Source: Naegleria gruberi (taxonomy: Eukaryota). From it: a DNA stretch of 4,759 nt. Positions within the stretch are counted from its first letter, which is position 1. Each line of letters starts with the position of its first letter. Shown here piece by piece: positions 1 through 4,759 of the stretch. The stretch lies in NCBI GenBank assembly GCA_000004985.1, contig GG739175.1, one strand, 5' to 3'. Under the pieces are notes generated by a model. It did no database searches. It saw nothing but the letters and a program-made list of their open reading frames with translations, and was not told the DNA's origin. A program made the position numbers and the translations under genes.

Positions 1-58
1 TTGTTTAAATAATCCTGTTAATATATTCATTGTTGATGTTTTACCTGCACCATTATGT
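1..58 (-). CDS. ABCA-family ABC transporter, partial exon carrying the NBD1 Walker A motif; continues beyond the window start
   Basis: The reverse complement of 1..58 translates as (G)[19 protein letters not shown], a Walker A GxxGxGKT in the typical ABCA context '[12 protein letters not shown]..ILTG'. The first base (pos 58) completes a Gly codon begun as GG at 217-216 in the upstream exon. This phase-2 join reconstitutes [10 protein letters not shown] exactly as in ABCA1-type NBD1. The frame is open to position 1. Confidence 0.85.
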
Positions 59-215
59 CTATTTAATTTTTAAATATTATTAAATGTTATTATATTAAAT
101 GTTATATATTGTAAAGTATTAAAGTATTAAATGTTATATTAAATGTTATATTGTAAAGTATTATTAGAAATAAAAATTATTATTAAAATTATTATTAAAA
201 AATATTAAAACATAC
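59..215 (-). other. spliceosomal intron (157 bp) of the ABCA gene
   Basis: On the minus strand it begins GTATGT (215-210) and ends ...AAATTAAATAG (acceptor AG at 60-59). GC is about 7% by my count over 61-120, typical of Dictyostelium introns. Removing it restores the Walker A reading frame. Confidence 0.8.
72..165. repeat. imperfect tandem duplication inside the ABCA intron (units TTAAATGTTATAT and TGTAAAGTATTA)
   Basis: TTAAATGTTATAT occurs at 96-108, 128-140 and 139-151, with a shorter copy at 81-90. TGTAAAGTATT occurs at 110-120 and 152-162. Together they form two ~35-40 bp tandem units. Confidence 0.5.
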
Positions 216-892
216 CCTAATAAACTAACACATTGATTATCTTCAACAATTAAATTTAAACCTTTCAAAGCCTTTTTCTCTCTAAAAAATCTGGATTGAG
301 CAATTTTGGCGGGAAAACATTTAGCAGCTAATTTAGTTAAAAATCCTGAATAAGTTTGTCTCAATGAAACAATTCTAACAACTGCATTAATTGAAGAATC
401 ACGTGAACGTTTAAATTCTTCTTTAACATCATTTGTTTCCATTTGTGAATAATCTTGTTCATCTTGATTAGTATTAGTTTTAATAGTTGATTTACTTTTA
501 AGACAATTTAATCCCCAATAGGAAGGATATATAAAGAAAATTGGTGATTTTCTAACACCACTTCCATCTGAAAATACATTATCACAATACCAATATAAAA
601 TTAAAAATAATAATCCATTTAAAATTAATACAATTATACCTAAATAAGAAGCAGGTACATAATCATATGTATTTGTACCAATAAAGAAATCTTCAAATGA
701 ATATCCAGGTCCAGGTACAAACTTTCTCAATTGATCATCATAAACAGGTAATGTTTTAGTTGCTATATCTGTAAATACTTTAGCAAAATTAAATGGTGGA
801 TAAAAACTTAATATTACTCTAAATGCAGGTGTTACACTTGTTGAATATAATTGATATACTATATTTCCATTAGATACAAATAAATTTAATAT
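216..892 (-). CDS. ABCA-family ABC transporter exon: end of TMD1 (TM5-TM6 region), linker, and N-terminal part of NBD1
   Basis: Hand translation of the minus strand from 892 downward gives ILNLFVSNGNIVYQLYSTSVTPAFRVILSFYPPFNFAKVFTDIATKTLPVYDDQLRKFVPGPGYSFEDFF...LILNGLLFLILYWYCDNVFSDGSGVRKSPIFFIYPSYWGLN...AVVRIVSLRQTY...KALKGLNLIVEDNQCVSLLG. It aligns by eye with human ABCA1 'LLSPVAFGFGCEYF...[40 protein letters not shown]...[37 protein letters not shown]'. There is no in-frame stop across 677 bp. The ORF-track 'M' at 730 is a TTG codon, not a real start. The acceptor AG at 894-893 is preceded by AATAATAG. Confidence 0.85.
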
Positions 893-975
893 CTATTATT
901 ATTATTAAAATATTAAATATTATAAAAATATTAAATATAAAATTATTAAAAATTAAATAAAAATAAAAAACATAC
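893..975 (-). other. spliceosomal intron (83 bp) of the ABCA gene
   Basis: Minus-strand donor GTATGT at 975-970 immediately follows codons ...GCT ATT TCA TTT (AISF). The acceptor is ...AATAATAG, with AG at 894-893. The junction is phase 0, and the frame switch between ORF 946..1647 and ORF 164..730 is exactly accounted for. Composition is almost pure A/T. Confidence 0.75.
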
Positions 976-1733
976 AAATGAAATAGCTAAAACAGTAAAA
1001 CCTAAAACTAGAGCAGATTTAGATTCCTTAATAAAAGTAGATAATAAAAAAGCAAAACAAACTAAACTAAAACTAAAACAAAAAAATAAAATTAATAAAA
1101 TTAAAAAATTTGCTTTCAAAAATATTGAAATTTGAAAAATCATTCCACCAATAACATTAACAAGACTAAAAACAAAACAAATAATAAAAAAAGTAATAAA
1201 CCAAGATATAAAATAAGCAGAATCTTTCATACCCATCATTATCATTGCAAATCTTAATTTACCTTCCTTTTCAACAACTAAACTATTTAAAGAAACAATT
1301 AAAATAATCATTGCACCAATACTAAAAAAGGTAGGACCAGTTGAATTATAAATTATAACTTGACCATTCTTTCTAGTTGGTGGTTGTGGTAAATTTTTAT
1401 AATCAACTTTAATTGAATTTCTAAAATCTTGTAATTCACTTGTTCTATTTAATTGTTTCATTCTATAATATACAATTGTATTATCTATTATATTTTGTAA
1501 TGATAAAATTGGTAATTTTAAATCTGTTTTACTTCTATTATAATATAATATATATGATATGGTATTTATAGAATCAAATACTTGATTTGGTATAAATGAT
1601 ATACCAATTGAAGTTAGATTAGGATTTGAATAAAACCATGATTCCATTTCAAATTTAGTTGTAAAATTTTTATAATCTTCATCTTGTTGTACATTATAAT
1701 CTTGTACTAATTGATTTAGAATTTGTGATCCAA
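976..1733 (-). CDS. ABCA-family ABC transporter exon: C-terminal part of extracellular domain 1, the EKE..MMG motif and TM2-TM5; open into the assembly gap
   Basis: The minus-strand frame (codon first bases at positions divisible by 3) is open from 1731 down to 976: GSQILNQLVQDYNVQQDEDYKNFTTKFEMESWFYSNPN...NSTGPTFFSIGAMIILIVSLNSLVVEKEGKLRFAMIMMGMKDSAYFISWFITFFIICFV...KESKSALVLGFTVLAISF. 'VVEKEGKLRFAMIMMGMKDSAYFISWFITFF' matches the ABCA hallmark 'YEKEARLKETMRIMGL..WFLLFF' at the ECD1/TM2 boundary. N-glycosylation-like NxS/T sites in the upstream part fit an extracellular loop. The 'M' at 1647 in the ORF track is internal, not a start. Confidence 0.85.
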
Positions 1734-1982
1734 NNNNNNNNNNNNNNNNNNNNNNNNNNNNNNNNNNNNNNNNNNNNNNNNNNNNNNNNNNNNNNNNNNN
1801 NNNNNNNNNNNNNNNNNNNNNNNNNNNNNNNNNNNNNNNNNNNNNNNNNNNNNNNNNNNNNNNNNNNNNNNNNNNNNNNNNNNNNNNNNNNNNNNNNNNN
1901 NNNNNNNNNNNNNNNNNNNNNNNNNNNNNNNNNNNNNNNNNNNNNNNNNNNNNNNNNNNNNNNNNNNNNNNNNNNNNNNNNN
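1734..1982. other. assembly/scaffold gap (run of 249 N)
   Basis: Uninterrupted n characters. It interrupts the ABCA gene upstream of ECD1, so the start codon, TM1 and proximal ECD1 are missing. Confidence 0.99.
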
Positions 1983-2440
1983 GACAACCTAGTAGATATT
2001 ATTAGATGATGTCTTTTTTTTAATTGAACTGTACAAAACTCCATATGCCAGCACCACACATCAAGACAGCAAATTTCAACTGCTGCTTCTGCAGACGGCT
2101 TCAAGTCGCAACTTCGACAATTCAATTTGTGCGTCATTGTGCGTTTACAATTCACCATTAGCTCGACGTTTAATAACGCTCTTAACAAGGTAAACATTCC
2201 TTTCTTCAAGTTGAATTAGAATGTGTTTCCTTTCTATCACACTGAGAGAATCCTTGTGAAAATTTCAACTGTAGAATTTGAGTTGTTGGAATTAACTTGA
2301 ATGAAATTTGTTTGTAATAGGATGCTTGTAAAACACAATGCTTGCTCATGCCTCTACCATTACTAAGTATTATTTTTATAAGAAACCTTGTTCTTGATTT
2401 GTGAGCTCAACATCTCTTTCAATATTAATATCCTGAACAC
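1983..2440. other. compositionally anomalous non-coding segment (35-50% GC) abutting the gap; candidate repeat/transposon remnant or ncRNA, unresolved
   Basis: By my count 2041-2100 is 30/60 G+C and 2101-2160 is 23/60, versus about 7% in the flanking introns. It contains no credible ORF: the only long frame is C/W-rich MFTLLRALLNVELMVNCKRT...CCLDVWCWHMEFC, which is not Dictyostelium-like. Internal short repeats are TTGTGCGT x2 (2127-2144), AAATTTCAACTG x2 (2071-2082 and 2261-2272), the palindrome TTCAAgTTGAA (2206-2216), and a T9/A9 run at 2012-2020. Confidence 0.3.
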
Positions 2441-2446
2441 TAATAA

Positions 2447-2452
2447 TTTATT
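2447..2452 (-). promoter_or_regulatory. putative polyadenylation signal AATAAA for the kinesin gene
   Basis: Plus-strand TTTATT at 2447-2452 is AATAAA on the minus strand, 38-43 nt downstream of the kinesin TAA stop (2492-2490). Confidence 0.4.
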
Positions 2453-2489
2453 TTCTTCTTATTCAGTTCCTGTGGAGACAATATTATGT

Positions 2490-4721
2490 TTAATCATAGT
2501 AGGATGAATTATCATCATTCTGACTCTCATTCCCATGACTACTCAAACTTCTTCTTCTTCTACCTCTTCCACCAAATTGTTCTTCTTCTTCTTGCTGTTC
2601 ATTCATGTCACCACTATATTGTTCATCTTGTTCTCCATATTGTTCGAATTGTTCTTGCTGTTCTTGTTGATGATCATATCTCAATGAATCATTTGAATCG
2701 GCGCTATTTGAATCTAAACTATTTGAATCCATACTATTTGAATTATCATTAAAATCAATTGAATTTTCTCTAAGAATTGAATTGACAACATCATCTGCTC
2801 TTTGAGGTGATTTCTCTTCAGACCAAGGACTTATTTCTTTAACTTCACCTTGTTCAACTAATTTAGCAATGATACGTTGTTTAACATTTGGTACAGATAA
2901 AAAACCATCAATAACTCTTTCTAAAGATTCATCTGATTGATTATTTTGTTCTTGTCTATTTTTTGCCTTATTAAACATTATATTTTGTTTTGCAATTTCC
3001 ATTTGTAAATGTCTAATAACATTACCAAATTTATCAATTAATTCACGTTCTCTATCTTCCCAACTTCCTCTTTCCATGAATTTTCTTGATGATGAATTTT
3101 TTGAGAGAGAGGAAATTTCACTTCTCAATAAATTAACTTGTCTCTCTAAATCTACATTTCTTTCCATTAATTTTACCTTTTCATTTTCAATAACATTAAT
3201 TTTCTTTTGTAAATTACCACTTAATATTTTAAAATCAACAACTTCATTAATAATTGCATGATTTTTAACATTCATTGCTCTATTAGCAAAATGTAAAGTA
3301 GAATAAGATTCATCATAATTCCACATAGATGGTCCAATAGTTGCAACAAGACATGTTTTAGCATTACCACCTAATGAATCTGTTAATAAACGTGTTAATT
3401 TGGAATCACGAAATGGTACATGATAAACATTTTCCTCTGTCAGGGCAGCAACACAATTACCCAAAGCACTTAAACTCTTATTAATTTTTTTAGCTTCTTC
3501 CAATCGTTGACCTTCACTTCCAGATTTAAAAACTCTTTCACTTCCTGCCAAATCAACAATATGTAACACTCCTCTTTTAACACTTTTATCACTTGATGAT
3601 TTTTGTTCAACTGTAATCATTAATATTACATGTGAACGTGAAGATAACTTATTCATATTTGTAGAATTTACTTGTCTATTTTTAGATCCTTCCTTAATTA
3701 ATTGCATTACTTCATAAGGTTCATTAACTTGTACTTGTGTTAATTGTTCTACAAATACTCCATTTTTTGGATCTTCTCTAATTGGTAAATTTGTTTTACT
3801 TGCATCAAGTAAATCCATTATATTTTCCATATATATTTGCATAAATGAAACAAAAACTCTAAATTCTGTATTATTTGAATATTCTTGTACATGTTCAAAT
3901 ATTTGATTTATACATCTAGGAATAACTCCACTATATTTATCAATTATATTTTCATTAGGTTTAATAATCCTTTTTGGATCTGTTGAACTTCCAAATATAG
4001 TAAATGTTTTACCTGATCCTGTTTGACCATATGCCAATACAGTTCCATTATATCCTTTTAATACATCATTAACAATGTTTTTACCAACTTGTTTATACAT
4101 TTCATCTTGAGAACATGTTGGTTCTAACACTTTATCAAATGTAAATTCTCTATCATCATAACATTCTCTTTTTAATATAACTGTATTTTTAACTGTTGCT
4201 ACACATGGTGGATATTCTCCAAATATTTGACTATTACTTATATCTTCTGATACTTGTGGTCTAACTCTAACAACTACTTTAACTCGTGTTGTATTATTGT
4301 TGCTAGTAGTAGTGGTAGTAGTGGTAGTATTAGTATTAGTACTAGTAGATGATACTAATGAATTATTATTATTGCTAGCTGAAGTAGTAGCAGTAGAGGT
4401 GGCATTATTAGCAGTTGTGTTACTAACAGTATTATTACTTATTGTTGGATTATTACCAATAATACTAGTATTAGGATTATTAAGAAGGGTTTTAGTTTTA
4501 GTATTAATATTTTGAGCAGATAATTCTGAAGTAGAATGACTCTTAGTCATATTAGAAGAGGCTGTTGAGGATGATAAATTAGTGGATGAAGGATTGAATG
4601 ATACAGATTTAGTTGTACTAGTAGTAGTAGTAACATTATTATTACTACCAATCATATTAGATTGAGGCAAATTACTAATTGAAATGTTACTGGAGGGTTG
4701 TTGTTGTAACTGATAATTCAT
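2490..4721 (-). CDS. kinesin motor protein (N-terminal-type motor with a long low-complexity N-terminal extension). 743 aa from the first in-window ATG; the frame stays open upstream to the window edge at 4759
   Basis: Kinesin signatures: RVKVVVRVRPQ (β1, aa 146), GYNGTVLAYGQTGSGKTFT (P-loop, nt 4005-4028), NMNKLSSRSHVILMI (switch I, nt 3630-3644), LHIVDLAGSERV (switch II, nt 3537-3554), KKINKSLSALGNCVAAL (L12/α5, kinesin-1-like), HVPFRDSKLTRLLTDSLGGNAKT and a neck region NVKNHAIINEVVDF. These are followed by a heptad-like segment (aa ~500-600) and an acidic tail ending in GGRGRRRRSLSS. The stop TAA is at 2492-2490. Upstream of the ATG at 4721 the frame reads ...NNYSKASTTINN with no stop, so the true start may lie outside the window. 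Confidence 0.9.
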   Translation of the reverse strand: MNYQLQQQPSSNISISNLPQSNMIGSNNNVTTTTSTTKSVSFNPSSTNLSSSTASSNMTKSHSTSELSAQNINTKTKTLLNNPNTSIIGNNPTISNNTVSNTTANNATSTATTSASNNNNSLVSSTSTNTNTTTTTTTTSNNNTTRVKVVVRVRPQVSEDISNSQIFGEYPPCVATVKNTVILKRECYDDREFTFDKVLEPTCSQDEMYKQVGKNIVNDVLKGYNGTVLAYGQTGSGKTFTIFGSSTDPKRIIKPNENIIDKYSGVIPRCINQIFEHVQEYSNNTEFRVFVSFMQIYMENIMDLLDASKTNLPIREDPKNGVFVEQLTQVQVNEPYEVMQLIKEGSKNRQVNSTNMNKLSSRSHVILMITVEQKSSSDKSVKRGVLHIVDLAGSERVFKSGSEGQRLEEAKKINKSLSALGNCVAALTEENVYHVPFRDSKLTRLLTDSLGGNAKTCLVATIGPSMWNYDESYSTLHFANRAMNVKNHAIINEVVDFKILSGNLQKKINVIENEKVKLMERNVDLERQVNLLRSEISSLSKNSSSRKFMERGSWEDRERELIDKFGNVIRHLQMEIAKQNIMFNKAKNRQEQNNQSDESLERVIDGFLSVPNVKQRIIAKLVEQGEVKEISPWSEEKSPQRADDVVNSILRENSIDFNDNSNSMDSNSLDSNSADSNDSLRYDHQQEQQEQFEQYGEQDEQYSGDMNEQQEEEEQFGGRGRRRRSLSSHGNESQNDDNSSYYD
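4297..4347. repeat. imperfect trinucleotide repeat (AGT/GGT/ATT)n within the kinesin CDS, encoding the poly-Thr/Asn tract
   Basis: The plus strand reads gttgctagtagtagtggtagtagtggtagtattagtattagtactagtag. On the minus strand this is ACT/ACC/AAT codons giving TNTNTTTTTTTTSNNNTT. It also creates the spurious poly-Val plus-strand ORF 4297..4515. Confidence 0.7.
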
Positions 4722-4759
4722 ATTATTAATAGTAGTAGAAGCTTTTGAATAATTATTTG

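Follow-up and report, generated by a model that had tools for sequence, protein, structure and literature searches.

The segment at positions 1983–2440 of the window (the whole 4,759-bp stretch of Naegleria gruberi DNA that was analysed) is probably an ordinary intergenic spacer. The two genes that it separates are arranged in tandem on the minus strand, and it would consist of the 3' UTR of a kinesin gene followed by the promoter and leader of an ABCA-type half-transporter gene. Its apparent anomaly arose because it was judged against the baseline of a wrong genome. In the first-pass annotation the segment was described as GC-elevated and internally repetitive and as a possible remnant of a transposon or structured non-coding RNA, with an ABCA promoter or 5' UTR as the fallback. 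It is this fallback that is now favoured, with a start codon that is predicted, from the N-termini of paralogues, to lie in the adjoining scaffold gap. The outcome is close to the idiosyncratic intergenic spacer to which the first-pass annotation had itself foreseen that its proposal might be reduced.

Gene order, the scaffold gap and the ABCA start codon

In the Sanger assembly of N. gruberi, the window makes up one small scaffold in full. The kinesin ORF encodes 743 amino acids and is 100% identical to XP_002668262 (EFC35518), kinesin [Naegleria gruberi], and the ABC-transporter fragment at the other end (three exons, running from 1731 to 1 on the minus strand) corresponds to P0121, which is XP_002668261, "predicted protein, partial [Naegleria gruberi]". 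The placement of the segment between the kinesin 3' end and the missing ABCA 5' end, directly adjoining the gap, was correctly described before, and the coordinates agree (Table 1). The host had been taken as a dictyostelid; the identity of the kinesin ORF shows that it is N. gruberi instead, and for this reason the TRE, DIRS, Skipper, DGLT-A and thug repeat set, together with the logic of tRNA-gene targeting, is inapplicable here.

Table 1. Positions of genes, signals and small sequence features in the 4,759-bp window.
Feature	Position	Strand	Basis or remark
ABCA-type half-transporter gene, partial, three exons	1–1733	-	introns ~61–215 and ~895–975; XP_002668261
Scaffold gap, N x 249	1734–1982		predicted to conceal the ABCA start codon and ~107 first codons
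Intergenic spacer, kinesin stop to ABCA start	1983–2489	- (strand of both genes)	33.5% GC
A8 run (T8 on the plus strand) within TCAATTAAAAAAAAG	2014–2021	-	base count
Four-way-junction fold	2018–2130	-	z = -2.48; boundaries chosen post hoc from a larger fold
GC-rich core	2023–2191		union of the 60-nt windows with GC >=40%; 50% peak at window starts 2039–2051
Direct repeat AAATTTCAACTG, 12 nt	2071–2082 and 2260–2271	+	chance level compared with the rest of the window
TTGTGCGT-CA-TTGTGCGT	2127–2144	+	8-mer recurring within 20 nt: 15% of shuffles
TATAAA, candidate TATA element	2375–2380	- (ABCA-sense)	pattern scan, consensus match only
AATAAA, candidate poly(A) signal	2447–2452	-	38 nt past the kinesin stop; pattern scan, consensus match only
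Kinesin stop codon, TAA	2490–2492	-	ORF 2490–4721
Kinesin gene	2490–4759	-	ORF open up to the scaffold end

A protein search with the ABCA fragment leads to P0123, encoded on the metagenome contig L004, which is 71% identical and has a complete N-terminus. This protein clusters at 90% or higher with N. gruberi NAEGRDRAFT_69484, and L004 is therefore the locus of a paralogue in a genome that resembles that of N. gruberi. A third ABCA paralogue is present on contig L005, which comes from the same sample as L004. The alignment of P0123 to the window begins only at residue 108 (tblastn, 1731 to 973, E 3e-124). A profile made from the N-terminal sequences of both paralogues matches, with 22.3 bits (E 7e-8), the 25 amino acids that adjoin the gap on its left side; in the six frames of 1983–2489 it finds no match and reaches at most 0.6 bits. 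From this profile and from the P0123 alignment it therefore follows that the first ~107 ABCA codons are located inside the gap and, since 107 codons need at least 321 nt, that the nominal gap size of 249 N is too small. In the L005 paralogue a short intron follows the residues LLKKNALLY, and such an intron is perhaps also present in the gap of the window.

Two other candidate starts were considered and rejected. The frame beginning with the ATG at 2044, MEFCTVQLKKRHHLIISTRL, runs open into the gap and has a length that suits the nominal gap; it is ruled out by the paralogue N-terminal profile, which does not match it, and by its negative codon score. A 31-amino-acid frame (2240–2148) with a loose likeness to the LLKKN...RR stretch failed the same profile test. 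When metagenomes were scanned for sequences related to the N-terminus of ABCA, 287 pattern matches were obtained, of which none was confirmed; a protein word-search with this N-terminus returned P0123 only, and neither search yielded an orthologous locus of another Naegleria species. As judged from the paralogue alignment and profile, the entire region 1983–2489 is predicted to follow the kinesin stop and to precede the ABCA start in the direction of transcription.

The scaffold itself has several further properties. The kinesin frame is open upstream of the annotated ATG (4721), where 4722–4759 on the minus strand reads NNYSKASTTINN directly before MNYQ, and this is paralleled by the longer N-terminus of the protein P0002, which has NNYSKPPNTINN before the same MNYQ. 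The start chosen in the XP_002668262 model is therefore probably an internal methionine, the real one being located beyond the scaffold. P0002 (XP_002668732) is encoded on a 15,297-bp N. gruberi scaffold; its kinesin N-terminal part, which is 98% identical and ends with HFANRAMN, is joined directly to a C-terminal portion of an ABC nucleotide-binding domain, such that P0002 is a chimeric gene model. This 15,297-bp sister scaffold seemingly does not have the content of the 4,759-bp scaffold. These relations suggest that the 4,759-bp scaffold is an unmerged allele, or else a piece that is absent from the 15,297-bp scaffold; they speak for a duplicate scaffold, allelic or unplaced, and against a gap induced by a repeat. 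The XP_002668261 model removes 46 residues (WFITFF...FCFSFS; window 1066–1203, minus strand), which form an uninterrupted in-frame transmembrane stretch that is kept in the paralogues P0123 and L005; the intron annotated at 1066–1203 is likely spurious. The public annotation of this locus has three faulty gene models.

Base composition of the spacer and of related 5' flanks

The GC values that had first drawn attention to the segment are reproduced: 34.5% for 1983–2440, 50.0% for 2041–2100 and 38.3% for 2101–2160. The value of 50% at 2041–2100 is the highest of all 60-nt windows, which over the scaffold have a mean of 26.2% GC (sd 7.9%) and a maximum of 41.7% outside the segment. The AT-richness of the two ABCA introns is also confirmed, with measured values of 7.7% and 2.5% GC. 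The baseline of 85–95% AT for non-coding DNA, however, was a premise from the wrong organism, and at this locus it fits the introns only. The N. gruberi genome has 35% GC, with 57.8% coding sequence and 5.1% repeats (PMC9928731), and the GC content of the segment (34.5%) equals this genome mean. It is the flanking genes, with a coding GC of 21–28% and a GC3 of 10.6% (kinesin) and 6% (ABCA), and their introns that are the unusually AT-rich part, rather than the segment, which looks GC-rich only because the surrounding transcribed DNA is extremely AT-rich.

The spacer differs from the introns and synonymous sites of the locus (34.5% versus 2.5–11% GC) by more than is seen on the paralogue contigs, where the contrast is smaller. 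Since the local contrast exceeds that at the paralogue flanks, the spacer may be under constraint or may be of recent origin. The ABCA and kinesin genes are themselves extremely AT-biased for N. gruberi, the GC3 of the paralogue contigs L004 and L005 being 29–33%, and this bias could be due to a locus-specific mutational regime, to expression level or to strain differences. In locus L002 of Willaertia magna, a relative with a GC3 of 8%, tRNA-free intergenic DNA has 13–31% GC. These spacers are above the synonymous-site GC, and such intergenic GC is therefore normal in this group. Literature searches on the composition of Naegleria promoters and intergenic DNA yielded genome-level statistics only.

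Two 5' flanks, those of the paralogues on L004 and L005, are available for comparison, and both have a GC bump close to the gene start. The flanks as a whole have 35% GC (L004) and 31% GC (L005), with values of 42–45% between -90 and -240 relative to the ATG in L004 and of 47% between -90 and -180 in L005. On the same 30-nt grid the window has 45–48% GC at 60–180 nt from the gap edge. The sequences underlying these bumps are unrelated. Local alignments of the segment with the L004 and L005 flanks score at the level of shuffled sequences, and no significant similarity is found. The best local match with L004 is TCAATTAGAAAAAAG, ending 36 nt ahead of the L004 ATG; this match, TCAATTA[A/G]AAAAAAG, is equalled by 25 of 300 and by 16 of 200 shuffles and is not significant. 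The three 5' flanks have no 8-mer in common, the 7-mers that they have in common are of low complexity, and no structure common to the segment and to L004 and L005 was found. As the bumps recur without common sequence, they are best seen as a recurring compositional property of these presumed promoters and not as a shared element. When the kinesin orthologues are used as anchors, L001 (a Logan contig) and the Willaertia locus L002 show neither synteny with the window nor any similarity to the segment.

Two properties of the paralogue loci concern their own gene starts. The leader on L004 contains at 289–363 an upstream ORF of 24 codons (MKHMLPLSIRKKSQQHFTCSILLA), read by eye, whose TGA stop overlaps the main ATG (gcATGa). 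On L005, likewise an N. gruberi-like metagenome contig, two ABCA-type genes are arranged head to head, at 251–1309 on the minus strand and 1672–4327 on the plus strand, with ~360 bp between them, which indicates a locally duplicated half-transporter family with a common bidirectional promoter region.

Coding, repeat, foreign-DNA and RNA signals

The earlier statement that no frame of the segment gives a plausible protein is borne out by codon scores, by Pfam and by a homologue search. The ORFs that are wholly inside the segment have at most 47 amino acids, and one frame of 75 amino acids enters the gap. With log-odds of codon usage that were trained on the genes of the window itself, the training exons score +0.57 and +0.47 per codon and a held-out ABCA exon scores +0.45 in its true frame, as compared with -0.9 to -1.7 for wrong frames. 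The ORFs of the segment score between -0.88 and +0.11, with a GC3 of 0.20–0.57 versus 0.06–0.11 in the real genes. The six longest of these ORFs have no Pfam match at E<=1, and an exhaustive phmmer search with the 75-amino-acid frame against 1.84 billion representatives gives no homologue. A protein-coding exon, belonging either to the ABCA 5' end or to an unannotated gene, is rejected, as the segment has neither the host codon usage, nor homologues, nor a match to the N-terminal profile.

The small sequence features reported before are present, in part at slightly different positions. The direct repeat AAATTTCAACTG has its first copy at 2071, as described, with the second at 2260 and not at 2261; the palindromes TTCAAGTTGAA and GTCGCAACTTCGAC are found at 2205 and 2105 and not at 2206 and 2104, respectively; and the TTGTGCGT-CA-TTGTGCGT arrangement is exactly where it was described. 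On the minus strand there is indeed an A-run, but it is an A8 at 2014–2021 and not an A9 at 2012–2020, there being no run of nine. These features do not make the segment internally repetitive, as the direct repeats stay within the range of the coding controls and the inverted repeats within that of the shuffles. Among dinucleotide shuffles, 2.6% have a direct repeat as long as the longest one of the segment (12 nt), but coding pieces of equal length from the same window have direct repeats of 9–15 nt. The exact inverted repeats of the segment are at chance level, being matched by 56% of shuffles.

It could be argued that a dispersed repeat or transposable element has its body in the gap and has broken the assembly there, and that the segment is a remnant or one end of it. 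Such an insertion would fit with the position directly against the gap, with a minus-strand A8 run close to the gap edge, with a composition far from that of the local introns and synonymous sites, as expected of a recent insertion, and with the fact that ~5.1% of the N. gruberi genome consists of repeats. We consider it quite improbable, since remnants of reverse transcriptase, endonuclease, transposase or other proteins are absent in every frame, since terminal and internal repeats are not above chance and no tRNA is nearby, and since the ABCA codons already require 321 nt or more of the gap, which leaves no nominal space for an element body. Moreover, GC bumps of a similar kind occur in unrelated sequence in the 5' flanks of both paralogues, and the break in the assembly has another plausible cause, as the 98% identity to part of the 15.3-kb scaffold would fit an unmerged allele. 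No copies of the segment are found in the loci L001–L005, and a 22-mer of it is absent from the metagenome collection.

The elements named earlier as candidates are those of Dictyostelium, and the host is Naegleria. The more specific proposal, a minus-oriented, tRNA-targeting non-LTR element of the TRE type, is contradicted by the lack of any RT, EN or ORF1 remnant and of any tRNA in the window. The features that the segment has in common with Dictyostelium TRE5 and TRE3 are only a short minus-strand A-run near the gap and the adjacency to an assembly gap. It differs from these elements by its occurrence in Naegleria and by having no tRNA gene and no ORF1/ORF2 or RT/EN remnant. The A-run, which might correspond to the oligo(A) end of such an element, has 8 nt and is set in unique sequence, of which 31 nt follow it before the gap.

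The segment might also be an assembly artefact, either the low-quality or chimeric tail of a read or foreign or vector DNA. It is ORF-free and more even in its base composition, as miscalled sequence would be, and it is found where a contig ends, on a very small scaffold whose content overlaps with that of another one. An artefact is nevertheless very improbable: there is no match to plasmids, vectors or E. coli genomes, 21–24-mers of the core do not occur in prokaryote genome, metagenome and viral collections, and there is no degraded likeness to the expected ABCA N-terminus, which a miscalled coding read would keep. In addition, the raised GC spans ~450 nt and grades smoothly into the well-supported kinesin 3' end.

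A different explanation of the GC-rich core, namely that it is a small non-coding RNA gene (snoRNA-like or lineage-specific) or else belongs to the ABCA leader as a structured cis-regulatory element, draws on a comparison with Willaertia. In L002, which comprises 21.7 kb of W. magna, the intergenic 60-nt windows with at least 45% GC coincide with three tRNA genes (2650–2722, 14884–14976 and 18418–18510), which are Asn-GTT and two intron-containing Thr-AGT genes, and the non-tRNA intergenic DNA stays below 45% GC in every such window, which speaks against the spacer reading. Each intergenic GC spike examined in Willaertia is thus an RNA gene, and therefore an RNA gene was worth excluding in the window. 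These tRNA spikes resemble the core in being ~100–150 nt long, with 45–58% GC, in AT-rich intergenic DNA, and differ from it in that the core has no ARAGORN or Rfam tRNA match. The searches with ARAGORN and with the Rfam tRNA model find no tRNA in the window, in L004 or in L005. When the whole window is searched against Rfam at E<=1, nothing is found in the segment, and the segment alone at E<=10 gives chance matches of 13–23 bits, the best of which has 23 bits versus a gathering score of 48.

The structure predictions are in agreement with these searches. In comparison with dinucleotide shuffles, the natural spans fold with z-scores between 0.04 and -1.47 (0.04 and -0.88 for 2020–2260; -1.47 and -0.25 for the whole segment). 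The four-way junction predicted on the minus strand would favour an RNA structure, but its boundaries were chosen post hoc; in an unbiased scan of 113-nt folds the minimum z in the segment is -1.5, whereas the coding controls reach -3.4 and 3% of these controls are at or below -2.4. The junction is for this reason judged to be noise. There is also no C/D box pair at a usable distance, the minus strand has no T-run of the Pol III-terminator type after the core, and neither sequence nor structure is common with L004 and L005. The previous reading of the segment as a structured RNA is therefore not upheld, the Rfam, tRNA and folding checks all being negative, and we regard an RNA gene or structured leader element as the least probable of the alternatives discussed here.

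Reading of the spacer as a promoter region

The preferred reading, a kinesin 3' UTR followed by an ABCA promoter and leader, is consistent with the order of the signals on the minus strand. In this direction the kinesin stop codon would be followed by a short 3' UTR and poly(A) region (stop at 2492–2490, AATAAA at 2452–2447), and the remaining ~430 nt would be the 5' flank of the ABCA gene, comprising an RNA polymerase II promoter and an untranslated leader. The kinesin 3' UTR is probably short, since the AATAAA is found 38 nt past the stop. The proposed order is then stop codon, AATAAA, TATAAA, GC core (~2191–2023), A8 run (2021–2014), 31 nt of unique sequence, and the gap with the presumed ABCA ATG. 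Both hexamers, AATAAA and TATAAA, occur at places that are plausible for a gene end and a gene start, respectively. If transcription were to start from the TATAAA at 2380–2375, the ABCA leader would be at least 350 nt long. The 45–50% GC core, which is no more than ~180 nt away from the edge of the gap, would correspond to the core-promoter or leader region, because similar bumps are present ~90–240 nt upstream of the paralogue ATGs. The segment is located directly upstream of the start codon predicted inside the gap, on the coding strand. A scan of the window for bacterial-type promoters and terminators gives nothing, such a scan being inapplicable to a eukaryote.

When compared with known systems, the segment is most readily likened to a Pol II promoter in a compact protist genome. 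As in such a promoter region, it is directly preceded by the stop codon and AATAAA of one gene and directly followed by another gene on the same strand; ORF, repeat and RNA-family signals are all absent, a TATAAA is present, and two paralogue flanks have GC bumps as well. The putative promoter differs in the unusually large contrast with the introns and synonymous sites (34.5% versus 3–11% GC). Vertebrate CpG-island promoters also consist of promoter-proximal DNA that is GC-richer than the surrounding transcribed DNA; this likeness is compositional only, and the core differs from these islands in scale (~150 nt here), in absolute GC (45–50% here) and in lineage.

It is conceivable, although on balance rather unlikely, that the core is one case of a systematic and undescribed Naegleria promoter signature, a GC "islet" of ~100–150 nt that is located within ~250 nt upstream of start codons and is kept up against very strong AT pressure on transcribed DNA (at this locus 3–8% GC in introns and a GC3 of 6–11%). 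An islet of this kind is seen in all three ABCA-paralogue flanks examined (3/3), and its role might be to exclude nucleosomes or to define the transcription start.

The finding is of little weight in itself. Its practical yield is that the ABCA start is predicted to be inside the gap, and that the annotated length of this gap is too short. For work on AT-rich heterolobosean DNA, the observation that the intergenic GC spikes of the W. magna locus are tRNA genes provides a handy rule of thumb. In N. gruberi, the order of composition is one in which introns are far poorer in GC than synonymous sites, and these in turn are far poorer than intergenic DNA, and this order gives no ground for inferring mobile elements.
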